DNA of 64,000 nucleotides from a bacterium (GCA_030648265.1 JAUSHX010000028.1:249-64248), one strand, 5' to 3'. Numbered from the stretch's first letter, positions 21,899 through 35,173 are shown. Made by a program: numbers and translations. The notes: generated by a model not told the origin, from the sequence alone.

Positions 21899-22771
21899 AT
21901 GACAAAGACTCCTCAAACACTCAGCCAGATTAAATTGCTCCGCGAGCGCTACTATAAGGCGCTGCCGGGCAAAGAGTTGCTCATCAAGATTATCAATGAG
22001 TCGGAAATTCCCGAGCACGTTTATAATTCAAACGCTATAGAAAATAGCACGCTCACCCTAGAGGAGACCGAAAAAATTCTCCTCCAGATTGATCTTGGCC
22101 GATATGTAAACGAGCGGGAAATTTTTGAAGCGAGGAATCTCGCGCGCGTTGTTGAATATATAGAAACGAAAGCAAAAGAAGCCGAGCTCTCTTTGTCCGG
22201 CATATGCCTGCTTCATAAAATGCTTATTGCCAATATCCGCGACGATGTCGCCGGCAGGTTCCGTCAGACTGGCGAGTGGGTGCGCGTCGGCGCACACATG
22301 GGAGCAGACCCGAAAGACATTGAGCATCTTCTGACAAAAATGCTCACGACATACCACGCAAGCTCGCACGAGCATATTGTGAAGCGCATTGCCTGTCTTC
22401 ATCTCGCCATTGAACACATTCATCCATTTGTTGACGGCAACGGGCGAATCGGCCGCGTCATTAACAACTATGCACTCATTAGGGAGGGGTACGTGCCGAT
22501 TAATATCGCGTTCGTGAATCGCGCCCGCTATTATGATGCGTTCAAAGAGTCTGATGCGAGCGGCGCAACCTCGATTATGGAAGAGGTCGTTGGCCGTGCG
22601 CTTGCCACGAGCTACCACAAGCGCTTGGCATATCTTGAAGGCAAACACATCATCACTCTTGCCGAGTATGGCAAACAAAAAAAACTTTCTCACTCAAATC
22701 TCATTAACAAAGCTCACCGCCAGACCATCCCTGCCTTTCTTGAGAAAGGTGTATGGAAAATCGGAGTGTAG
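21899..22771 (+). CDS. Fic/DOC family protein
   Basis: Fic motif HPFVDGNGRIGR. Confidence 0.85.
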   Translation: MTKTPQTLSQIKLLRERYYKALPGKELLIKIINESEIPEHVYNSNAIENSTLTLEETEKILLQIDLGRYVNEREIFEARNLARVVEYIETKAKEAELSLSGICLLHKMLIANIRDDVAGRFRQTGEWVRVGAHMGADPKDIEHLLTKMLTTYHASSHEHIVKRIACLHLAIEHIHPFVDGNGRIGRVINNYALIREGYVPINIAFVNRARYYDAFKESDASGATSIMEEVVGRALATSYHKRLAYLEGKHIITLAEYGKQKKLSHSNLINKAHRQTIPAFLEKGVWKIGV

Positions 22772-23014
22772 TATTCGTGTAGTAAATACCCTCATAAACC
22801 CTTGCGTTCATCATATAAGCTTGTAGTTAGCTGTTAATCTACAAGCACAAGGAATGACGCAACCCCCGCTGTGAGCCCCGAGGCGAGCAGAGCGAGCTTT
22901 TCGGGGTGAGTCCAGACCTGTTCCGACGCCCCTAGTTGATAAGAAAATCCTTTAAAATAGAGCACGTAATATCGGCAGTATCAAAAAATTAAGATTTGTG
23001 GGATGATTTGATTG

Positions 23015-23677
23015 ATGAAGATTAAAGCACTTCCTGCGCACGAGAGGCCGCGAGAAAAACTCATGGAGAAAGGTGCGGAGAATCTGACCGATGTTGAGTT
23101 ACTCGCAATTCTTTTGCGCACTGGTCGCGCAGGAAAGAGCGCGCTTGATATTGCGGAAAGTATTCTCACAAAGTACTCAAAGAAAAGAATATTAGATATT
23201 ACGTTAGCCGACCTTAGAGCGATCAAAGGCATTGATGCGGGCAAGGCATGCACCTTGCTTGCGGCATTTGAGTTCACAAAACGTGCGACGGGCGCGCATA
23301 AAAATGGAAGGCCAATTATACAAAGCACTGAAGACGCACTGGCACAACTGCATGATGTTCGCTCGCATAAAAAAGAGCATTTCGTTGCGCTTTACTTAAA
23401 TGCTCGCAACGAGCTTGTGCATCGCGAAGATATTTCAGTTGGAACAGTAAACGCAAGCATCGTACATCCGCGCGATGTATTTGCCCCTGCGCTTGAGCAT
23501 AATGCTACGGTCGTCATAGTCGCTCACAATCACCCCTCCGGCAGTCCTGACCCATCGCCAGAAGATTACGATGTTACTGCTCGCCTTAAAGACGCGGGGA
23601 AGCTTATCGGGGTCCAGCTTCTCTACCACCTTATCCTCACCAAAGACGGTCATGCGACGATTCATCAGAACCCGTAA
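23015..23677 (+). CDS. radC: RadC-like JAB/MPN domain protein
   Basis: HNHPSGSPDPSPED JAMM motif and an N-terminal HhH region. Confidence 0.8.
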   Translation: MKIKALPAHERPREKLMEKGAENLTDVELLAILLRTGRAGKSALDIAESILTKYSKKRILDITLADLRAIKGIDAGKACTLLAAFEFTKRATGAHKNGRPIIQSTEDALAQLHDVRSHKKEHFVALYLNARNELVHREDISVGTVNASIVHPRDVFAPALEHNATVVIVAHNHPSGSPDPSPEDYDVTARLKDAGKLIGVQLLYHLILTKDGHATIHQNP

Positions 23678-23880: not shown

Positions 23881-24501
23881 ATGAAAAGCGCTAAGAATCT
23901 ACTCGAGCAGCTCAAATCCTTGCCTTATTTCACCAAGGAGTCTGTTTTGCAGCTTAGCAGACCGTACGGCCTTGCAAAAACAACGGTTGACACATACATC
24001 AGCCGCTCCATGAAGCGCAAAGACATCCTTTCGCTAAGGAGGGGGCTATATGTATCTGCCGACTTTTACAACAAGAACAAGAGTGACACCTCGTATCTTT
24101 TCTTCCTTGCAAATGTTATCCGCAAGCCTTCCTATGTAAGTTCGTGGGCGGCGTTGCAGTACTATGGTCTTGCGACGGAAGCAATCCACACCATTACGTC
24201 CGTTACTTCCAAGGTGACGCGTACATACGTTACAAAGGCAGGCAACTTTGTCTACTCGTCGATAAAGGACGAACTATTTTCTGATTCAGTCTTGATAAAA
24301 GGAAAGTTCGACTTCTTTATCGCCACTCCGGCAAAGGCTTTGTTTGACCTGTTGTATGCTAAGACTCGTCAGTTTCAGGGAGTTGCGTTCGAGCATATTC
24401 CAAGACTCGTCGAAGAGCTACGCATCGATATTGATGAAATGGACAAATCAGAAAGAGAGAAATTTTATATGATGGTAAAGAAATATACGCACCATGGATA
24501 A
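23881..24501 (+). CDS. AbiEi-like antitoxin / transcriptional regulator
   Basis: wHTH-type N-terminus, SYVSSWAALQYYGL motif, 8-nt overlap with the downstream NTase gene. Confidence 0.5.
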   Translation: MKSAKNLLEQLKSLPYFTKESVLQLSRPYGLAKTTVDTYISRSMKRKDILSLRRGLYVSADFYNKNKSDTSYLFFLANVIRKPSYVSSWAALQYYGLATEAIHTITSVTSKVTRTYVTKAGNFVYSSIKDELFSDSVLIKGKFDFFIATPAKALFDLLYAKTRQFQGVAFEHIPRLVEELRIDIDEMDKSEREKFYMMVKKYTHHG

Positions 24502-25780
24502 TCAGATTCTCAGCGTGCTTAAGCAGAGACTCCAGGAAGTTGTCGCGTTGGGCGTTGCCGATGCCGAAACACAGCGCAATGCACTGAAAGAGGAGCTTCA
24601 GTACTATGTACTCGATTTTATCTATCACCACCAGGAATACAAAAGATGGGTGATGTACGGCGGTTCCGCGTTGCGTATTTGTCACGGCTTGGACCGAATG
24701 TCTGTCGACCTTGACTTCGAGGTTGAACATCCCATTACTGATGCATTTCTCACAGACCTACAGAATGAAATCGGAGAGCATTTTTCAAGCGCTTACAATG
24801 TTGGTTCGGAATCGTTGACGGTAAAAACCAATCATGGCCGTGGACTAACGCTCCGCTTTATCATCGGCGACGAACTGGGGTTTGGCCACACATCCAATCA
24901 GGTACATGTGAAGATAGACCTCAATAATTTCATGGCCCCCAAGACGGTTATCGAGCGCCGGCCAATCAACCACAACCAGCTTTCATTCGTTATCGTGACC
25001 TACAATATGTCAGCGCTCATGGCGAGCAAGATTGCCGCCATATTCTTGTGCGGTCGGCGGGGTATCGGAGAAGCGGTGTATGAAGAGAAAGGCAGAGACA
25101 TCTACGATTTACTCTGGTACATGGGCAAGAAGACTGTGCCTGACCTTGATTATCTGAACGCAAAGAAAGTTGAAGAAGCTAAAGACATCCGCACGCTTTT
25201 CACTAAGCTCACGATACAGATGAACAAAGTGAACAATGAAAATCTGAAGCAGGATCTCACGCCGCTTTTCACCAACCAGGGATTCATCACTCACTGGCTT
25301 GAAAACTGGCGCGAGAGTTTTTTCCACTTCATGGATGCTTATAAGATTCGTACCGTAACAAAGCTTGAAGGTGTGCGGGTGTTTGAGGATTTCAACTCCG
25401 ACGTATTTTCATTTGTGTACGCATACTCCACGGCAGAGGGAGATTCGGTGCGGGTTGCGTACCTCATCAGTGACTACTGGATGGACTTCAAGGACGGCGA
25501 TATCCCGACGGTCATAGATAACTTTGTAGACGAGCATATCGAATTTGCCGCAAATGGCGTATCAAGTCGACCCGCATCACAGAAAAAGCTCAAACAGTAC
25601 GCAACTATGTTTTATGCTAAAACCGAAGCGTATTTCAAAAAGACCGGACGCATCATGATAGGCGATACTATCGCGACAAAGCTCATCCGCATGACTGCCG
25701 ATAAACTGAACCAGAAAGAGCAGATTGTGCTCAACAAATCCGCCTTGTTGTCATGCGAGCTTGACGACCTGCTAAGATAG
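24494..25780 (+). CDS. AbiEii/AbiGii-family nucleotidyltransferase toxin with long C-terminal extension
   Basis: GGSALRICHGLDRMSVDLDFEV NTase motif. At 428 aa it is longer than the size I recall as typical for this family. Confidence 0.6.
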   Translation: MDNQILSVLKQRLQEVVALGVADAETQRNALKEELQYYVLDFIYHHQEYKRWVMYGGSALRICHGLDRMSVDLDFEVEHPITDAFLTDLQNEIGEHFSSAYNVGSESLTVKTNHGRGLTLRFIIGDELGFGHTSNQVHVKIDLNNFMAPKTVIERRPINHNQLSFVIVTYNMSALMASKIAAIFLCGRRGIGEAVYEEKGRDIYDLLWYMGKKTVPDLDYLNAKKVEEAKDIRTLFTKLTIQMNKVNNENLKQDLTPLFTNQGFITHWLENWRESFFHFMDAYKIRTVTKLEGVRVFEDFNSDVFSFVYAYSTAEGDSVRVAYLISDYWMDFKDGDIPTVIDNFVDEHIEFAANGVSSRPASQKKLKQYATMFYAKTEAYFKKTGRIMIGDTIATKLIRMTADKLNQKEQIVLNKSALLSCELDDLLR

Positions 25781-26478: not shown

Positions 26479-27072
26479 ATGAATCAAATTGTCTACATCT
26501 TAATAAATGAGTCTATGCCTGAATTTGTGAAGATAGGCTTTACTCATGGTGATGTAAACGAAAGAATCAGGCAGTTAGATCGGACAGGCGTACCTCTTCC
26601 GTTTGAAGTTTACTACGCTGCAACAGTGGAAGACGCAGAAAAAGAAGAAAAATGGTTGCATTCTATTTTTGCTGATCGTCGGGCACGGGATAGCCGAGAA
26701 TTTTTCAAGATGAATCCTGAATATGCGGCGCTTGCATTAAAACGAGTAGAAATTAGAGAAACTAAGATTTATAGCGTACTGACCCCAGAACAGGAAAAGG
26801 AAGTCGATCAAGTAAAAGAAAGACGCTCAAGATTTCATTTCGCACAGTACGGAATTCCAGTCGGATCTAAACTTACTTTTACGAGAGATTCGGATATTGT
26901 TGCCGAAGTAGTAGAAAACGACAAAATAAAGATTGGAGACAAGGTTGATTTTCTATCAAATGTGGCCCGTGATTTATTGGGATACAGGCGAAGACCTCAA
27001 GGCACTTTGTATTTTGAATTTGAGGGCGAGATCTTAGATGATAGACGCAGAAGAATGGAGGAAGAAGATTAG
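26479..27072 (+). CDS. T5orf172 / GIY-YIG-like domain protein
   Basis: VYILINESMPEFVKIGFT...ERIRQL...PLPFEVYY...EKWLHSIF...REFF pattern. Confidence 0.65.
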   Translation: MNQIVYILINESMPEFVKIGFTHGDVNERIRQLDRTGVPLPFEVYYAATVEDAEKEEKWLHSIFADRRARDSREFFKMNPEYAALALKRVEIRETKIYSVLTPEQEKEVDQVKERRSRFHFAQYGIPVGSKLTFTRDSDIVAEVVENDKIKIGDKVDFLSNVARDLLGYRRRPQGTLYFEFEGEILDDRRRRMEEED

Positions 27073-27173: not shown

Positions 27174-28055
27174 TTATCTGTAATAATTCAGTAGGACTTC
27201 GAGGGTCAGGTCTACGCCTCTTGTGCGGAGTTCTTTAATTACTTTTCCAGTGTAAAGCTTTTTAAGCATTTCACTTTTTGACGCATCTTCCGCATTGTGT
27301 ATTTTTCTGTGACAATTTGGACATAAAGGCACAATGTTTACTGGAACATCAATACTGTGCGGGAAGTCTTCCTGATTAGAGATGGGTATTATATGATGCA
27401 TTTCAACGTATTGCCCCTCGAGTGTGGGGCTAAAAAAGGTCTTGTGCGATGGATCATAAGTACAGAGGTTGCCAGATAAAATAAGTGCGAGTTTAGCTAT
27501 CCTTGGGTTGCCCCGATACCCAGTAGATGAATTTTTTGTCTGTTTTCTAGGCTTTGCGATTGGTCCCTCCGGCAATGGTTCAATCGGATCCGCGATGCGC
27601 ACTGCAGTCTGGAACATCTCATCAGTTGTGTCTATGACGGACTCCCCCCTTTCTATTGCGGAGATGATTCGCTGAGCCTCCTCAATGGTGACTGTGTCTG
27701 ACGCTGCAAGACCGGAGAGGTCTTTCAGCCTGTATTCGTGACCAGTGCCGTTAGGAGATTCGAATACACGATGTGCCAATCTGCCATCCCCCTGGTTAAG
27801 CTCACTCCGATATTGCGCTGTCCAGTTACTGCCGTGATGAAACTCGTGCCTCCAAAGTTCTGAAAAGGGGTTGGATCTGAAATTCTCGATAGGTAAGTAT
27901 TTCCCAGGTTTTGCGATGGACAATGCCGAAAGAATTATTGCAAATGAGAGGCGGGTGCTATCTTTATATTGGAAAACCTCGGCTAACTCACTGGCGGTCA
28001 TTTCAGAAATCATAGCTGTATAGTTATACACATCCGAAAATAAGTAAAGCACCAA
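27174..28055 (-). CDS. HNH endonuclease (candidate restriction nuclease)
   Basis: C-terminal YVEMHHIIPIS...NIVPLCPNCHRKIHN. Divergently transcribed from the methyltransferase fusion. Confidence 0.7.
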   Translation of the reverse strand: MVLYLFSDVYNYTAMISEMTASELAEVFQYKDSTRLSFAIILSALSIAKPGKYLPIENFRSNPFSELWRHEFHHGSNWTAQYRSELNQGDGRLAHRVFESPNGTGHEYRLKDLSGLAASDTVTIEEAQRIISAIERGESVIDTTDEMFQTAVRIADPIEPLPEGPIAKPRKQTKNSSTGYRGNPRIAKLALILSGNLCTYDPSHKTFFSPTLEGQYVEMHHIIPISNQEDFPHSIDVPVNIVPLCPNCHRKIHNAEDASKSEMLKKLYTGKVIKELRTRGVDLTLEVLLNYYR

Positions 28056-28130
28056 TCTTAGTGCATAATATGCATGTTACTGCTCGTATTGGTTGATTAA
28101 TTTACCACCTACACTCAATTGGTCGAATTC

Positions 28131-31031
28131 ATGGTCTATATATCAACGAAAAAAGCCTCAGATATTTTGGGAGTATCTCCAACAACCATGAGACGATATG
28201 CGGATGCTGGGAGTTTGCCCGTTGTTCGCTTGTCGCAATCGAGGCACCGCCGTTTTGCCGTATCTGACGTTAGTAAGTTGTTGACGGACCTTTCAGTAAG
28301 AGGCGATGAGAATGGGTTCCACAAGAAGAATAGTCCATCTTTCGCCAAACCGCATCCTTCTCACTATCTATTACATAAATATTGGGGCAGAAAGGCCCAT
28401 AATATTGTCGAGAACTATGTTAAGCGATACACCCGAAAAGGAGATGTGGTACTTGATCCGTTCATGGGGAGTGGCGTTGTATTAATTGAATCGGCGAAAG
28501 CACATCGTAAGGCTATTGGAATCGACATTAACCCTTTGTCGAAGTTCATTGTTGACGGTACTACGCAGAAAGTTAACCCCGAGGAACTCGCCGAGGTCTT
28601 TGGAAACATTCTGTCTCAGTTGGAGGCAGCATTTGAATACTACAATATGACAAAATGTTTGCACTGTAGACTCGATTCAACCATAGAAACTACGGTATGG
28701 AATGAGACGGAGCCAGCAGTCATCAGATTCCGCTGCCCCGTTCACGGCGTCGGTGTTAAAGTCCCGTCCCAAAGTGATAAGAGGGTTATTAGAGAGGCAC
28801 GCACTCTGTTTGAAGATCTTGAGGCGGCACACGAATTACAATACCCCAAGGATGAGATTTTAAAATATGTAAAAAGAAGTGGAGTATCGACTATAGATGC
28901 GCTCTTTACATCCCGGGCGTTAGTGCAGTTGTCCCACCTGCTTATCCTAATAGAAAAAGTGGAAGTCCAGTCTGTCCGCGACACTTTAAAATTAATATTT
29001 AGTTCAATGTTACCGAACGTCTCGAAGATGATACCTGGCGATATTGAAAAAGGAACGTATAAGTCTGGTTGGGTCATCAGCAAATTTTGGGTTCCCAAAA
29101 TACATACGGAACGCTCCGTGTTGCATTGCTTGAAACTCCGATTCCAATCTGTTTTCAAAGGGAAAAAAGAGTTAAAAGATTTAGACGAGAGCTTAATTCA
29201 ATCGCACATAGCAGATAGTAAGAAACTGGCTCTCGATGATAATTCAGTCGATTATATTTTTACTGACCCGCCTTATGGAGAGAGTATTGCATACCTCGCC
29301 TTGAGTCATTTTTACAATGCCTGGTTTAAAATGCTACCTGAATATTCTAATGAGATTATTATCGATCCATATAGAAAGATTTCGAAAGAAGATTTTGCAA
29401 GAAATATCCAAAAATGTTTTGGAGAGATGTATAGGGTTCTTAAACCAAATAGGTTTCTATCCTTCACCTTTCACAATAGGAATTTGGATGTGTGGAAGAC
29501 TATCCTAGAGGCATGCCTAAAGTCGGGATTTACACTTAAGGACATTGTCTTTCAGCCACAGGCAGTTTCGTCGGGAACACAGGGTATCAACAGAAAGAAT
29601 ACCTTATACGGGGATTTCATCTATACATTTCAAAAACCTAAGAAAAAGAAGATTCATGAGGGGTTCAAATACTTCGATAACGCCTACGGTTTTCTGGTTA
29701 ATACAATAAATTCTCTATTAGTATCAAAAGGGCAGGTTTCTACGGCTGAATTGTATGAGCATATAATACCTATTATTGTGAAGAATCACGCATATCTGGA
29801 TAAGGATGGGAAAATTATCGATTTGGAGACATTGATCAGTAATAATTTTGAGTATAAGAAGACAGAGAAAGGTGATCGGTGGCGTGCCCTTTCCAGAGTT
29901 GCCAACACATCACGTTTCACGGTCGTGGACTTATTTGCGGGGGCGGGCGGTTTTTCTGAGGGATTTAAACACGCGGGGTTTGACATTGCTGTTGCGGTTG
30001 AAAATGACTCACGTCATAGCGAAACGTATGTGCACAATCACCCAAATACTAGATTGATAGTGGACGGAGTTGAAAACATCTCAACATCAAAGAGGCGGGG
30101 GAGGTTCTCAATTTCAGAGTTTCTAAGGGAGAATCATAAATCTTGCAACATCATCATTGGAGGTCCTCCATGTCAGGGATTCAGCATGGCAGGTTCGCGA
30201 ATTAGAAGAAAAAGAAGATTCTTATCGGATAGACGAAATACCCTGTTTCTTGAATACGTAAATTTGGTTGAAGATTTAAATCCAGAAGTATTTATACTGG
30301 AAAATGTACCGGGAATACTCAACTATGATAACGGAGCCGTAAAAGAAGAGATCATATCGAAATTCGCAGAGCTTGGATATGATGTGCATGCTGAAATCTT
30401 AGACGCAAGTAAGTATGGTATTCCTCAATCTAGAAAGCGGGCTTTTTTCATTGGGAACAGATTGGGCATTCCGTCGAAAACTCTATTTCCGAATTCACAA
30501 TGTGATAACGAAACTGTGTCAGTATGGGATGCGATTAGTGACCTTCCTCAAATTATGAGCGGTGAAGGAGGTCAGGTTATAAAAAACAATATGATGGTAC
30601 CTCAGTCACATTATCAGCAAATAATGCGATTGGAAAACGAGGACTGTATTTTCAATCATGAAGCGCCAACGCATAGTCAGGCCACTCTAGATGTTATGAA
30701 ACTCATAAAACCAGGTAAGGGATTGAAGGATCTACCTAAGGAATTTCACACAAGATCGGTTCATAGTGGTGCATATGGTCGAATGGAAAAGGATAGGCCA
30801 GCGTTCACCTTAACGACTCGTCTAAACACTCCATCGGTTGGAAGAATTACGCACCCAGTACTGCATAGAACGATCACGCCTCGAGAGGCTGCCAGGTTAC
30901 AGAGTTTCTCTGATTCGTATCGATTCTTCGGTGACGTGACAACTCAGGGAATTCAAATTGGCAACGCAGTACCTCCACTCCTGGCTGAATTAATTGCCAA
31001 AGAGATTATGAAAAAAGCTTTTGATCGGTAG
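28131..31031 (+). CDS. fusion protein: excisionase-type HTH + N4/N6 DNA methyltransferase + C5 cytosine methyltransferase
   Basis: HTH: ASDILGVSPTTMRRYA. N4/N6 domain: motif I VLDPFMGSGV, then about 270 aa later motif IV FTDPPYG. C5 domain: DLFAGAGGFSEGF, GGPPCQGFS, ENVPG, QSRKR, GNAVPP. Confidence 0.8.
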   Translation: MVYISTKKASDILGVSPTTMRRYADAGSLPVVRLSQSRHRRFAVSDVSKLLTDLSVRGDENGFHKKNSPSFAKPHPSHYLLHKYWGRKAHNIVENYVKRYTRKGDVVLDPFMGSGVVLIESAKAHRKAIGIDINPLSKFIVDGTTQKVNPEELAEVFGNILSQLEAAFEYYNMTKCLHCRLDSTIETTVWNETEPAVIRFRCPVHGVGVKVPSQSDKRVIREARTLFEDLEAAHELQYPKDEILKYVKRSGVSTIDALFTSRALVQLSHLLILIEKVEVQSVRDTLKLIFSSMLPNVSKMIPGDIEKGTYKSGWVISKFWVPKIHTERSVLHCLKLRFQSVFKGKKELKDLDESLIQSHIADSKKLALDDNSVDYIFTDPPYGESIAYLALSHFYNAWFKMLPEYSNEIIIDPYRKISKEDFARNIQKCFGEMYRVLKPNRFLSFTFHNRNLDVWKTILEACLKSGFTLKDIVFQPQAVSSGTQGINRKNTLYGDFIYTFQKPKKKKIHEGFKYFDNAYGFLVNTINSLLVSKGQVSTAELYEHIIPIIVKNHAYLDKDGKIIDLETLISNNFEYKKTEKGDRWRALSRVANTSRFTVVDLFAGAGGFSEGFKHAGFDIAVAVENDSRHSETYVHNHPNTRLIVDGVENISTSKRRGRFSISEFLRENHKSCNIIIGGPPCQGFSMAGSRIRRKRRFLSDRRNTLFLEYVNLVEDLNPEVFILENVPGILNYDNGAVKEEIISKFAELGYDVHAEILDASKYGIPQSRKRAFFIGNRLGIPSKTLFPNSQCDNETVSVWDAISDLPQIMSGEGGQVIKNNMMVPQSHYQQIMRLENEDCIFNHEAPTHSQATLDVMKLIKPGKGLKDLPKEFHTRSVHSGAYGRMEKDRPAFTLTTRLNTPSVGRITHPVLHRTITPREAARLQSFSDSYRFFGDVTTQGIQIGNAVPPLLAELIAKEIMKKAFDR

Positions 31032-31078: not shown

Positions 31079-31405
31079 ATGCCCGACGAAACCCAGGCCC
31101 CTGCGACCGAGCCAGAAACACTGAATGAGCCAGTGGCTAGTAGCCAGCAGCCCGTAGCAATACCAGAAACAGACGTATCAAGTCCTGCGGGCGATATTTC
31201 AAGCACCGAAACCCCGCCTGCGCCCCAAAACGGCCCTGGGGACATCGCGACCCCGGTTCCTGTTAAAGATGCAAATTCGGAGCCGAATTTGGCTGAGAGC
31301 AGTGGCGAAAATACGGAAAAACAGCCTGAAATCGGAGCCGCGGGAGCGGCCGCTACTGCGGTTGCTCCCGCGGCTTCATCCCCCTCGTTTATCGGCGATT
31401 TTTGA
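31079..31405 (+). CDS. low-complexity Pro/Ala/Glu-rich ORF (doubtful)
   Basis: 108 aa with no fold-like segment. Its stop overlaps the TTG of the next ORF. Confidence 0.25.
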   Translation: MPDETQAPATEPETLNEPVASSQQPVAIPETDVSSPAGDISSTETPPAPQNGPGDIATPVPVKDANSEPNLAESSGENTEKQPEIGAAGAAATAVAPAASSPSFIGDF

Positions 31406-32310
31406 AAGATAACGGTCTCGCTGTTGGCCAACCAGGAAGATTTGAATTAACAAAAGCGGGCGTGTTGTTGTTTGGTAAAAATCCTTCCATTGCACTTAAA
31501 AATAAGTGTGGAATTAAAATCTCTCATTATTATGGAACAAAACCGAGCCATACCGGAAAACCAAATTTCGTTACTCGTCCGTTTACGGTTGAAGGGCCTT
31601 TGTTGAAGCAGATTGAGCAGGCAATTGAGTACTTCAGGAATATTGTAAAGAATTCGCCACCAAAACTTAGCGGTGCGTCTTTTAACCCTACTTTTTTGGT
31701 TCCGGAATGGGCATTCCAAGAAGCCATAACAAATGCGGTTATCCACAGAAACTATTTTGTCCAAGACGATATACAAGTCAGGTTTTTTGACGATCGCGTT
31801 GAAATCGAAAGCCCCGGAACATATCCAGGCCATATTACTGTTGAAAATATCAGGACCGAACGGTTTGCGAGAAATCCGCTGATTTTGCGAACTCTCAATC
31901 GTTTTCAAATTGCCCCTAACTTGGATATTGGCGAGGGCGTAGATCGCATGTTTAAAGTTATGAAAGAGCAAAACCTGTATGAACCACTTTTCTTTCCGCC
32001 CACGATACGTCCCAATTCTGTTTTATTGTTTTTGCTTAATATTCAGAAAGTTGAGTATTGGGACACTGTCGGTAAGTATTTAGATAAAAATTATCGCATC
32101 TCTAACAAAAGAGCGCGCGAGATAACCAGTGTGCAAGATATTTTGAAAATGTCTCGACTGTTACATAATTGGGTTGAAAAAGGATTATTGGAGAAAATGG
32201 GCAAAGCCAAGAAGGACTGCTATTACCGTAAACCAGGACAGGAAATCCCCAAGGGTTTATTTTCAATGGGGGGTGATAATAAAACCGGCAAAGGGAATTT
32301 ACACCCTTAA
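31402..32310 (+). pseudogene. 5'-truncated AlbA_2/HATPase_c_4-type putative DNA-binding protein
   Basis: It begins near the end of the AlbA_2 domain (LTKAGVLLFGKNP), then QEAITNAVIHRNY ... IESPGTYPG ... RNPLI ... IGEGVDRMF. It opens with TTG and lacks the N-terminal ~100 aa. Confidence 0.5.
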
Positions 32311-32364
32311 AATAGGCATATTTTGGTAGGCCTTATTCTCACAGACACATTAAAGGAAGAAATT

Positions 32365-34158
32365 ATGTCAACGCCGCAATCTGAAAATTCATATATTGCC
32401 AATGAAATCTTGCCTCTCTTGGCAAGTGGTTTTGGCTATCCGATTCACGATTCTGTCAGGGTAAAAATCAACGATGTCCCGATTTTCCGGCCGAGTGGTG
32501 GTCGAGCAGGCACTATGGATATTGTCTACTATCACAATGGTGAGCCAGTACTACTCGTAGAAGCTAAGAGAAAACACAAATCGCATGATGCGGCATTGCA
32601 AGAGGCCCTTAAATATTTACTTAATTTTCCCGTTAAACGTGAAGAGTTCGCTCCATCCGGCATACCCCCGAAATTTTTGGCAACAACTGTCGGCAAAGAA
32701 ATAAAGTTTTATAAATGGTCGTACGATTATTCTCATCAGATACCGGATTTTTTGACAGAAGAAGTTGAGATTCTGTCGTTTAATAGACTTCTTGAGTATT
32801 ACGGTTTAAACGAAAAGTATCAGGCACGTATTTTGGATGTGAGAGGATTTAAGACAGATTTTTTTGACGAATTAGTAGCAATTTTTAAAACAGATGCGAA
32901 GGAGGAAAGAATCACCGCAGATATTATCAAGAAGGTTTCACTGCAGATTCTTAATTTTTTGGCTTATGGAGATAAGTTTGCCGGTCAGCTGCCCTATACC
33001 GGTTTGTCTATACAGGGACAAAAGGCAGTGCGTGACTTGTTTGACCGCTTTAATCTAACATCCTCGCTTGGACCGGAAGCCGCCAGAGAGTTCCGCAGAG
33101 CAATTCTACGCTCCTTTCAGGGTGGCGGATTTAACCAGTATCTTACAGAACAGTGCGTGATTGCTTTCATGGTCGGTCTAGTAGGGGGTTTTAGACCGGA
33201 AACCACGGTGCTTGATTTCGAGTGCGGAAGCGGTGGATTCTTAGCAGCCGCTGTTGAGCTTGGCGTCGGTTTGGAAAATATACGCGGCATAGATATCGAG
33301 GAATTACCTTGTATTGTTGCCAAGACCTATTTAGCTCTATATTTCAAGAAAACGGGTGAATGGATTGATGCTCTACCAGTGAAAAAAGATAACGGCCTGC
33401 TCGACCAAGGGAGTAATTGGGATGTTGTAATCGGCAATCCAGCTGGTGGGAATAAATACGAGCACGGAGGTTTAGTAAAAATTGGAAGTCACCTTGACCG
33501 AGACTTGGATAGAAACGGTCGGCTGGACGACAATCTTTCCGAGTATAACCTTTCCATTCAGCAGGCCGTGATGAGTACAAAGATTGGCGGAAAAATCTGC
33601 CTGATTTTGCCGGAAGGATTTTTTTCGAACTCACAGGATGAGTTTCTGCGCAAATTTGTGGCCAAGCATTGTAAAGTGTTGGCGATTGTTAGTCTGCCGC
33701 GCGGTGTCTTCAAGAAAGGGACCTCAACGCGTCGACTAAGGGGTGGTGCGCAAACCGCCTCTATGAAAATGTCTATTTTTTGTGCAGAGAAAGTGAAAGA
33801 GATTGATAAGGAAGATCTGATTGGCACCGACGATTCTTCTACCGTGAGTTATCCAGTATTTCTTGTGAGCGTAAACGAACCAACATCAACAAGCGGGTCG
33901 GTTTGTGACTGGCTTGAACCGCGCCTCGTTGCCGTATTAGAGCAGTGGGAAGTATGGCGCAGCAGCGAGCATCTTGAAGCAAAGCCGATTACCAAAATCG
34001 CCGCATTAGTAAGTGAAAAGAGAAAGAAACATTTGCCCGCCGTGCCGTTACCTTTCGCACAAAGTCCAGATGCCGATACCAAGTCGGCGCGCAAACGAGC
34101 ACAGCCGAAGACGCAGACCAAGGTCAACAAAGATTTGGACGATATTTTCTCGCAATAA
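32365..34158 (+). CDS. PD-(D/E)xK nuclease-like N-terminus fused to an N6-adenine-MTase-like domain with atypical motif IV
   Basis: MDIVYYHNGEPVLLVEAK (D...EAK), motif I LDFECGSGGFL, and VIGNPAGG where NPP[FYW] is expected. SD AAGGAAG lies upstream of the ATG. Confidence 0.6.
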   Translation: MSTPQSENSYIANEILPLLASGFGYPIHDSVRVKINDVPIFRPSGGRAGTMDIVYYHNGEPVLLVEAKRKHKSHDAALQEALKYLLNFPVKREEFAPSGIPPKFLATTVGKEIKFYKWSYDYSHQIPDFLTEEVEILSFNRLLEYYGLNEKYQARILDVRGFKTDFFDELVAIFKTDAKEERITADIIKKVSLQILNFLAYGDKFAGQLPYTGLSIQGQKAVRDLFDRFNLTSSLGPEAAREFRRAILRSFQGGGFNQYLTEQCVIAFMVGLVGGFRPETTVLDFECGSGGFLAAAVELGVGLENIRGIDIEELPCIVAKTYLALYFKKTGEWIDALPVKKDNGLLDQGSNWDVVIGNPAGGNKYEHGGLVKIGSHLDRDLDRNGRLDDNLSEYNLSIQQAVMSTKIGGKICLILPEGFFSNSQDEFLRKFVAKHCKVLAIVSLPRGVFKKGTSTRRLRGGAQTASMKMSIFCAEKVKEIDKEDLIGTDDSSTVSYPVFLVSVNEPTSTSGSVCDWLEPRLVAVLEQWEVWRSSEHLEAKPITKIAALVSEKRKKHLPAVPLPFAQSPDADTKSARKRAQPKTQTKVNKDLDDIFSQ

Positions 34159-34305: not shown

Positions 34306-34672
34306 TAGCAGCCCTGAAACCAGCTGTTGGTAACTCGCTTCGCAACTCGCTAATACTAAGCTAGGGTGCTCAACGATAGCCAAAAGTGCTATCATGTTCT
34401 GTACACCACCAATATCGGCTCGAAAGAGCGTCGACCTAAACTATTCGCAAGAGTGGCATGGTCGAGAAGACCCAATCACGATACTGAACCCGCCTGTTTG
34501 GGCTGTCCCCACTTCTTGCGAATTTCATCTTGACCATGTATACTGCTACGCATAAACACCTTGTCGTAGCTTCGGTTACGGTAAGTCAACGAAAGGGGGC
34601 TTAGGCCCCCTTTTGTTATGTATGGTATTCTTGAATCCATGGTATTCTGAACTTCAGATTCACACTTTCTAT

Positions 34673-35173
34673 ATGGCAACGAAAATAAACCAAGCAAAGT
34701 ATCGCAACGCCATCCTGTTTTTTGCGAGTAGGATTCAAAATGGCACGCTCGGCAAGTTGAAGCTAATGAAGCTTCTCTACTATTTCGATTTCGATTTCTT
34801 CGAGAAATATGGGCGCTCGGTTACAGGTGATAAATACCTACGTTTCGAGAATGGTCCCGTGCCACGTATGGCAGAGAAGATTATAAAGCAGATGGATGGC
34901 AAAGAAATCAAGATTTCGAGGCGAAAGGTAGCTGATGGCTATAAAGACCAGATGCATATAGAAGCTCTTGTGGCCTTTGATATTAGTGTTTTCGAAAAAG
35001 AAGAAATCCTTCTTCTCGAGGAACTTGCGTCCAAATGGGAACGCTTTAGCGGTGCCGAAATGAAAAGTGCGACTCATGGTGAAGCACCATGGATTGCCAC
35101 CGAAGCGAATGGCGTCATCGATTACAATCTCGCCTATTATCGAGACACATACGGCGAAATGGCAAAGGTCTAG
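34673..35173 (+). CDS. DUF4065 (Panacea/SocA-like) antitoxin-type protein
   Basis: LGKLKLMKLLYYFDFDFFEKYGRSVTGDKYLRFENGPVP pattern. Confidence 0.65.
   Translation: MATKINQAKYRNAILFFASRIQNGTLGKLKLMKLLYYFDFDFFEKYGRSVTGDKYLRFENGPVPRMAEKIIKQMDGKEIKISRRKVADGYKDQMHIEALVAFDISVFEKEEILLLEELASKWERFSGAEMKSATHGEAPWIATEANGVIDYNLAYYRDTYGEMAKV

Follow-up and report, generated by a model that had tools for sequence, protein, structure and literature searches.

This report concerns a divergent gene pair at positions 27174–31031 of a 64,000-nucleotide stretch of bacterial DNA (GCA_030648265.1 JAUSHX010000028.1:249-64248), which was analysed over its full length and is referred to here as the window. One gene encodes a nuclease with a winged-helix (wH) module and an HNH domain; the other encodes a fusion of a helix-turn-helix (HTH), an amino-methyltransferase and a C5-cytosine methyltransferase (MTase). 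This cassette, which we read as a probable restriction–modification (RM) system, comprises the following features.

27174–28013, minus strand: wH-HNH nuclease gene, 279 aa, 100% identical to the public model P0121, with an ATG start at 28013
27174–27608, minus strand: McrA-like HNH (beta-beta-alpha-Me) domain, with a C-H-C-C zinc site (C184, H190, C231, C234) and catalytic HH...N...H
27639–28013, minus strand: winged-helix module 'X' and long helix, residues 1–125 of 279, proposed target-site reader
28014–28130, no strand: divergent intergenic (promoter/operator) region between the restriction (R) and modification (M) genes, 117 bp
28064–28069: −10-like CATAAT, preceding the candidate operator
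28076–28081: GTTACT, at the upstream side of the candidate operator
28080–28096, plus strand: 17-nt candidate operator for the MTase HTH (putative function), CTGCTCGTATTGGTTGA, an instance of the pattern STGHHCGHHTTGRWYGR
28131–31031, plus strand: HTH + amino-MTase + C5-MTase fusion gene, 966 aa, 100% identical to the public model P0001, with an ATG start at 28131
28137–28286, plus strand: HTH_17/MerR-type helix-turn-helix, residues 7–56, proposed autoregulator
28371–29885, plus strand: amino-MTase module, residues ~85–589
28455–28475, plus strand: amino-MTase motif I (DPFMGSG, residues 113–119)
28656–28745, plus strand: conserved Cys3-His zinc ribbon (C180, C183, C206, H209), inside a ~240-aa insert of the amino-MTase
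29265–29276, plus strand: amino-MTase DPPY (residues 383–386)
29910–31031, plus strand: C5-cytosine MTase module, residues ~598–966, showing the canonical order of motifs I–X
30168–30176, plus strand: C5 PCQ motif, residue 684

The two genes are transcribed divergently and lie 117 bp apart. An original prediction, made from the sequence alone, had located both open reading frames (ORFs) and named the HNH protein as the nuclease partner of the MTase; ORF calling returned the same coordinates, with the HNH gene on the minus strand at 27174–28013 or, in its longest form, up to 28055. The longest ORFs start at TTG codons and span 27174–28055 (minus strand, 293 aa) for the nuclease and 28119–31031 (plus strand, 970 aa) for the MTase. 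MTase motif positions are given in the 970-aa numbering, and the zinc-binding and catalytic residues of the nuclease in the 279-aa numbering. The GC content of the cassette was 39–43%, versus about 50% in its flanks.

Pfam and NCBIfam domain searches found the three predicted parts in one polypeptide, and the catalytic motifs were intact in both MTase halves. At the N-terminus, residues 7–56 matched HTH_17 with 36 bits (cut-off 27, E = 8e-9) and MerR (1.3e-5), and profile matches comprised the excisionase-like and MerR-like DNA-binding chains 6amk, 6ama and 8jbs. The label 'excisionase-type', given to this HTH at first, was appropriate at the level of family names but did not extend to the excisionase family TIGR01764 itself, which scored 23 bits, under its cut-off of 28.8.

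The amino-MTase module matched N6_N4_Mtase (PF01555, beta-class N6/N4 enzymes) with 81.2 bits versus a cut-off of 26.7, in two separate stretches. UPF0020 and MethyltransfD12 were its other Pfam matches, and the PADLOC model MTase_II PDLC03319 aligned with it over positions 1–498 of 503. Mean column identity was 66% across Clostridia, archaea, Campylobacterota and others. The linear order of the beta class (motif IV DPPY, target-recognition domain (TRD), motif I) was not observed; as predicted, motif I (residues 113–119) precedes DPPY (residues 383–386) by about 270 residues. The predicted permutation relative to the beta class was confirmed by the family profile, in which the motif IV side (residues ~361–453) aligned with the N-terminal portion of beta-class enzymes and the motif I segment (residues 109–147) with their C-terminal portion (structures matched: M.MboIIA, DpnA, CcrM, M.RsrI and an N4C-MTase). 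The order motif I–insert–motif IV is that of the alpha type, whose motif I to motif IV arrangement has long been known. Because DPPY is invariant, the module most likely produces N6-methyladenine (m6A), and less likely N4-methylcytosine (m4C).

The C5 module was also complete, in agreement with the prediction. PF00145 (DNA_methylase) covered residues 600–965 over its entire profile (1–324 of 324; 228 bits versus a cut-off of 22; E = 2e-67), and TIGR00675 scored 202 bits versus 100.65. The motifs were I (FAGAGG, 606), IV (PCQ, 684), VI (ENV, 728), VIII (QSRKR, 770), IX (TPREAARLQ, 920) and X (GNAVP, 948), and the matches in the PDB were DNMT1, M.HaeIII and M.HhaI.

An assembly or frameshift artefact, which the original prediction had named as one way of being refuted, was ruled out by the continuous frame, by about 45 clusters of fused full-length homologues (43–68% identity; independent isolates and assemblies; several phyla) and by split relatives. 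The same short junction, located past the conserved '...YKW' with which the amino-MTase ends, is present in all ~45 of the fused proteins. These were found in the complete genomes of Aestuariibaculum lutulentum and a Peribacillus, as well as in metagenome-assembled genomes of Omnitrophota, Ruminococcus, Pseudoalteromonas, Photobacterium and others. Nearly all of them have an intact motif I and DPPY in the amino-MTase half (NPPY in one case) and an intact motif I and PCQ in the C5 half. Far commoner are HTH + amino-MTase proteins of ~606 aa lacking the C5 half, with a separate C5-MTase gene that overlaps the 3' end of the amino-MTase gene at the very point of the fusion junction. In a scan of species-representative genomes, the C5-MTase was directly downstream of the amino-MTase, or fused to it, in 26 out of 27 close loci (24 split and 2 fused). 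Given this pairing, the fusion is a derived form of an obligatory two-methylase unit.

The nuclease carries an HNH Pfam match at residues 215–254, with PF01844 and PF13391 as the only families. The domain corresponds to group 1 (McrA-like) of the His-Me finger nucleases, with a beta-beta-alpha-Me core, catalytic His/Asn/His and zinc ligands. The ~200-aa N-terminal region, which could not be assigned in the original prediction, was examined in an AlphaFold2 model (mean pLDDT 89.5, pTM 0.81) built from a 16-sequence alignment; the full-length homologues found numbered 16 (40–63% identity). At the level of the fold, the model and the alignment assign it as a winged-helix DNA-binding domain followed by a helical linker, since the most conserved stretch of the nuclease, NWxAQYRSELNQGxxRLAxRVF, spans helices 64–73 and 79–83 and occupies the position of the recognition helix in winged-helix folds. 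The wH is joined to the HNH domain by a long helix (104–121) and then a linker. When the wH module was compared with solved structures, sequence and profile searches found nothing similar, neither the wH domains of DpnI and HhiV4I nor any further solved chain. Phage records contained no relative of the nuclease; in plasmid records, only HNH-domain matches and one AAA_5[wH] system annotated 'hypothetical protein' were found, with no curated enzyme names.

A separate observation concerned a 367-aa protein in locus L007 (1104-4396), with an HNH domain 42% identical to that of the cassette and another N-terminus. It adjoins two C5-MTase genes and a GmrSD gene, and is probably part of another asymmetric-site RM system based on the same nuclease domain.

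The state of the two genes bears on whether the pair still works as an RM system. It could instead consist of an orphan epigenetic or regulatory MTase, with its HTH as a transcription factor, next to an inactive HNH gene, or the HNH protein could be a selfish homing-type nuclease. Orphan MTases are common, and some genes of the surrounding island seem to have decayed (31079–32310 and, at 32323–34158, an MTase whose motif IV is degenerate). However, neither ORF of the cassette is truncated and none of their catalytic or zinc-binding residues has been lost, the two-gene unit was retained at 40–68% identity in many lineages, and there is no intron or intein context such as homing endonucleases have. 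We regard this explanation as very improbable.

Moreover, the two genes are strictly linked. The HTH-MTase gene was divergently adjacent to the wH-HNH gene in all distinct loci with usable flanks (7 out of 7), and the MTase was in the fused form wherever its 3' end was visible (6 out of 6 loci). This divergent layout was kept in L004, L005, L006, L047, L049 and L051, with roughly 80–270 bp between the called genes. The surroundings of these loci were otherwise unrelated (UvrD, a TraG/integrase element, polA, tRNA synthetase genes, phage tail genes), and included a conjugative element and a prophage. Among the mobile or defence neighbours, we observed TraG, SSB and integrase genes in L005 (1-1606, 7004-7954) and a tail tape-measure-like gene in L049 (8195-9803), as well as, at loci of the relatives, a Hachiman pair (HamA and a DEAD helicase) in L001 (838-4925) and a 32.8-kb plasmid, pSpe of Thiospirochaeta perfilievii (L052).

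An exhaustive HMMER scan of 1.84 billion representative proteins found the wH module, which is thus rare, in only 26 representatives, nearly all of wH-HNH or AAA_5 architecture. In the latter, which are McrB-like, a segment at about residues 145–265, just past the P-loop core, was 36–57% identical to the module. The AAA_5[wH] gene is followed by a DUF2357/PDDEXK_7 (McrC-like) gene, and both are divergent to homologous MTases; in the genome-annotation set, the module adjoined the same MTase family in 10 out of 11 AAA_5 loci. The hosts were Aestuariibaculum, Peribacillus, several Clostridia, Alkaliphilus, Acetivibrio, Pseudolactococcus, Streptococcus mitis and, on plasmid pSpe, Thiospirochaeta. 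In these AAA_5 partners (L002 4298-5932, L003 4210-5859, L010 5125-6861 and relatives) the wH follows the P-loop core, and is not N-terminal as in McrB or LlaJI.R1; ~280 further residues had no assignment. Three giant proteins, P0151 (3636 aa), P0159 (2066 aa) and P0163 (2805 aa), gave weak phmmer matches to the module over multiple stretches, which could be related winged-helix repeats or spurious. The Clostridium cellulovorans genes Clocel_4005–4008 (PMC11779793), considered as a characterised member, were not used as homologues, as the species-representative scan with family-specific peptide patterns returned no record of C. cellulovorans.

Other pairs of amino-MTase and C5-MTase (L017-L035; Patescibacteria, Pelagibacterales, SAR86, SAR116) have neither the HTH nor the wH module. 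Of the 18 HTH-less loci, 13 have a ResIII/superfamily 2 (SF2) helicase of ~820–870 aa upstream, and 9 have, downstream, a ~450-aa NOV_C (PD-(D/E)XK-like) protein with an RE_AlwI-like region (e.g. L022 4438-6909 and 9653-11002). The helicase and the NOV_C protein represent a third engine of restriction that accompanies this methylase pair.

Conservation was unusually high in both the wH module and the target-recognition regions of the MTase, which would be expected of two readers of one fixed sequence. It is tempting, although somewhat short of probable, to regard the wH module as a portable reader of the unmethylated target of the double methylase, plugged into the HNH nuclease in some loci and into McrB-like AAA+/McrC-like engines in others, with the third, helicase-based engine serving the HTH-less relatives, so that three engines would be driven by one specificity. 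The same distribution may also be read in another way: the wH would serve for docking or for non-specific binding of DNA, and the MTase, with its zinc-ribbon insert and C-terminal region as TRDs, would provide the specificity and bring in or license the nuclease within a complex of the Type I/III kind. The module does travel always with this MTase family and with no other, and its presence in two nuclease engines that are unrelated to each other is what a common adaptor would show. However, the helix at the recognition position bears a cluster of invariant W, R, E, N, Q, R and R residues, which are polar or basic as in DNA-contacting helices, and in LlaJI specificity rests solely on the McrB-like subunit, so that such a docking role seems quite unlikely.

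A 17-nt element in the intergenic region was shared by 8 loci. They belong to two lineages, the rest of whose intergenic sequence could not be aligned, and each has a single copy that lies 9–37 nt before the start of the MTase. With a pattern drawn from these loci themselves, we found 1 match in the window versus 0.03 expected and, in 51 fetched loci, matches at MTase 5' ends only. Short intergenic palindromes were not conserved in other loci. The word GTTACT, located just past the −10-like box in 7 loci, was considered as a restriction target but found no support, occurring 18 times in the window versus 16.4 expected. Since every wH-HNH-linked MTase and most AAA_5-linked ones carry the HTH, and the conserved element precedes the MTase gene, we infer an SsoII-like autoregulation of the MTase by its HTH at the 17-nt element.

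Overall, the cassette is fairly likely to be a mobile two-gene Type II RM system located in a defence island, most likely Type IIS-like and with an asymmetric site. Support comes from the intact catalytic motifs, the fused homologues, the linkage of the two genes in otherwise unrelated surroundings, the near-confinement of the rare wH module to partners of this MTase family, the L007 protein beside two C5-MTases, the 17-nt element and a GC content below that of the flanks. Such sites need one MTase for each strand, and amino-MTases fused to 5-methylcytosine (m5C) MTases are known as 'DoubleMTases'; the obligatory pairing of amino-MTase and C5-MTase is thus what asymmetric-site systems need (PMC3874165). 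According to this reading, the amino-MTase half would modify one strand of the target and the C5-MTase half the other, which would protect the host DNA. The N-terminal HTH would probably bind the 17-nt element located at the 5' end of the MTase gene and balance the expression of M and R, as in SsoII/Ecl18kI. The winged helix would read the unmethylated target, and the McrA-type HNH domain, tied to the wH by the long helix and the linker, would cut the DNA, probably beside the site.

Several points weigh against this interpretation. The 17-nt pattern was counted in the loci from which it had been drawn, and a scan of the intergenic region for consensus promoters and terminators found no sigma-70-type promoter. 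The sole solved relatives of the HNH domain are Type IV enzymes dependent on methyl or phosphorothioate groups, McrA (EcoKMcrA) and ScoMcrA, and the only PADLOC match of the nuclease was mREase_IV. In addition, Helbrecht et al. 2024 described wH-HNH proteins (224–283 aa), PUA-wH-HNH proteins and other wH-nuclease fusions as Type IV enzymes dependent on Dam m6A, and listed wH-NTPase and McrC pairs as putative Type IV systems (PMC11037411). The HNH protein could therefore be a Type IV wH-HNH nuclease reading methylated DNA, for example fully methylated 6mApT as DpnI does, in which case the MTase would make a non-conflicting mark and the two would be neighbours and not a cognate pair. The strong depletion of GATC in the window agrees with this. 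We nevertheless consider this main rival reading unlikely. The wH lies beside the same MTase family, in a fixed divergent layout, in both the wH-HNH and the AAA_5 loci. Helbrecht et al. 2024 used as a criterion that modification-dependent enzymes stand alone, 87% of theirs having no MTase nearby (PMC11037411), by which MTase-linked wH nucleases are expected not to be modification-dependent. The module also shows no detectable similarity, even by profile, to the wH of DpnI or HhiV4I. A methyl-dependent nuclease tied to an m6A and m5C double MTase would moreover risk self-restriction, and the McrBC-like machine of LlaJI, encoded beside two MTases, attacks unmethylated DNA.

The Type II reading was compared with four groups of known enzymes. 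Among the systems with asymmetric sites, Eco31I/BsaI have a separate gamma-MTase and m5C-MTase, which are fused in Esp3I/BsmBI, and BssSI and BseRI have gamma~m4C fusions (PMC3874165); the HNH superfamily includes the restriction endonucleases (REases) of the Alw26I/BsaI/BsmBI group as well as MnlI (PMC5714182). The cassette resembles Esp3I/BsmBI (and Alw26I/BsmAI) in that one chain joins an amino-MTase and an m5C-MTase with complete motifs, and that the REase partner belongs to the HNH superfamily. However, the amino-MTase of Esp3I/BsmBI is of the gamma class, whereas that of the cassette is beta-class-like, with an alpha-type order and the ~240-aa zinc-ribbon insert. The C5 domain of M.Esp3I and M.Alw26I is circularly permuted (PMC5944983), whereas that of the cassette runs canonically from I to X. 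Their REase is PF09665 (RE_Alw26IDE) and that of the cassette is a McrA-like PF01844 domain behind a winged helix; the N-terminal HTH of the cassette lies outside the composition described for Esp3I/BsmBI (PMC3874165 Table 3). Because of these differences in amino-MTase class, C5 motif order and nuclease family, the cassette is analogous, and not homologous, to this family.

In LlaJI, a McrBC-like nuclease with two MTases restricts unmethylated DNA, and the McrB-like subunit is the sole specificity determinant (PMC1459862). The same plan, with two MTases, an AAA_5 GTPase-like specificity subunit and a PD-(D/E)XK subunit, was found in the sister loci L001–L003, L010–L016, L033 and L052 (pSpe). 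Both MTases of LlaJI are m5C enzymes, and its R1 has the DNA-binding domain at the N-terminus, whereas the sister loci have amino- and C5-MTases and a wH after the P-loop core; the cassette itself has a single-chain wH-HNH nuclease in place of the two-subunit motor nuclease, AAA+/McrC-like genes being absent from the window. The enzymes HhiV4I, SruGXI and HtuIII of Helbrecht et al. 2024 share with the cassette nuclease a winged helix placed before a McrA-like HNH domain, a length of about 280 aa, and a parallel family of wH–McrB-like NTPase and McrC. Unlike the cassette family, which lies beside a double MTase, they are stand-alone enzymes dependent on Dam m6A, and their NTPases are arranged as N-terminal domain-wH-NTPase, whereas the relatives of the cassette are arranged as P-loop-wH-rest. 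Finally, in SsoII/Ecl18kI the N-terminal DNA-binding region of the MTase binds an operator between the divergent R and M genes (PMC3978073, PMC2760811). The N-terminal DNA-binding region on the MTase and the divergent R/M genes are common to the cassette; M.SsoII and M.Ecl18kI are however single C5-MTases with a different N-terminal region, whereas the cassette has an HTH_17/MerR-type domain on a double MTase, for which the 17-nt element suggests operator binding.

The original interpretation of the locus therefore stands in its essentials, namely a real three-part polypeptide with an HNH partner, for which an RM system is the most plausible function. It does not stand in its description of the architecture as uncommon, nor is the architecture new in kind: fused DoubleMTases are documented in Esp3I/BsmBI (PMC3874165), HTH regulators on MTases are documented in SsoII/Ecl18kI, and the exact three-part fusion has its ~45 homologous clusters. 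Each architectural element was already known, and the current understanding of RM systems is not overturned. If the Type II reading is correct, the cassette represents a so far uncharacterised, compact RM system of a Type IIS-like kind, presumably with a new specificity, and its 279-aa two-domain nuclease could be used as a reagent or as an engineering scaffold. The association of the same methylase pair and wH reader with either an HNH or a McrBC-like motor nuclease would represent a modular exchange of restriction engines around a fixed specificity, and cautions against a default Type IV annotation of wH-HNH or McrA-like HNH proteins. If the wH is indeed a portable reader, these systems would provide a matched set for asking how a recognition module is coupled to simple or NTP-driven restriction, and would be an exception to a rule now emerging, by which the wH-nuclease fusions of prokaryotes are Type IV enzymes that depend on m6A.

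The cassette belongs to a defence island at about 21.9–35.2 kb of the window, flanked by ligA/gatA upstream and ilvD/ilvC downstream, which also contains the following genes.

21899–22771: Fic
23012–23677: RadC/JAB
23881–25780: AbiEi/AbiEii
26479–27072: T5orf172, the PADLOC candidate system PDC-S57
34613–35173: SocA/Panacea antitoxin-like gene

The T5orf172/PDC-S57 gene was considered as a second nuclease partner of the MTase and ruled out, since it adjoins the cassette in no other examined locus. With both strands pooled, the words depleted in the window relative to a Markov expectation were GATC (138 versus 478 expected), TCGA (228 versus 456) and CTCAG/CTGAG (22 versus 74), which suggests long-term exposure to RM systems with such targets. 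A target deduced from this depletion could not be assigned to the cassette or to any other gene of the window, as the contig has other MTases and 64 kb is little sequence.

Downstream of the cassette, at 31079-32310 (plus strand), a 108-aa Pro/Ala/Glu-rich ORF runs into a 302-aa ORF with HATPase_c_4 as its sole domain and a weak PADLOC match to regions associated with prokaryotic Argonaute (pAgo); this looks like a disrupted or N-terminally truncated gene of the AlbA_2/HATPase_c_4 type. It is followed at 32323-34158 (plus strand) by a gene whose 611-aa product combines an HSDR_N-like N-terminus with a gamma-type N6_Mtase/Eco57I-like domain and matched mad2 of the MADS defence system weakly (62 bits versus a cut-off of 720). 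This MTase-like protein may be catalytically inactive because of its degenerate motif IV, which reads GNPAGG in place of NPP[YFW].

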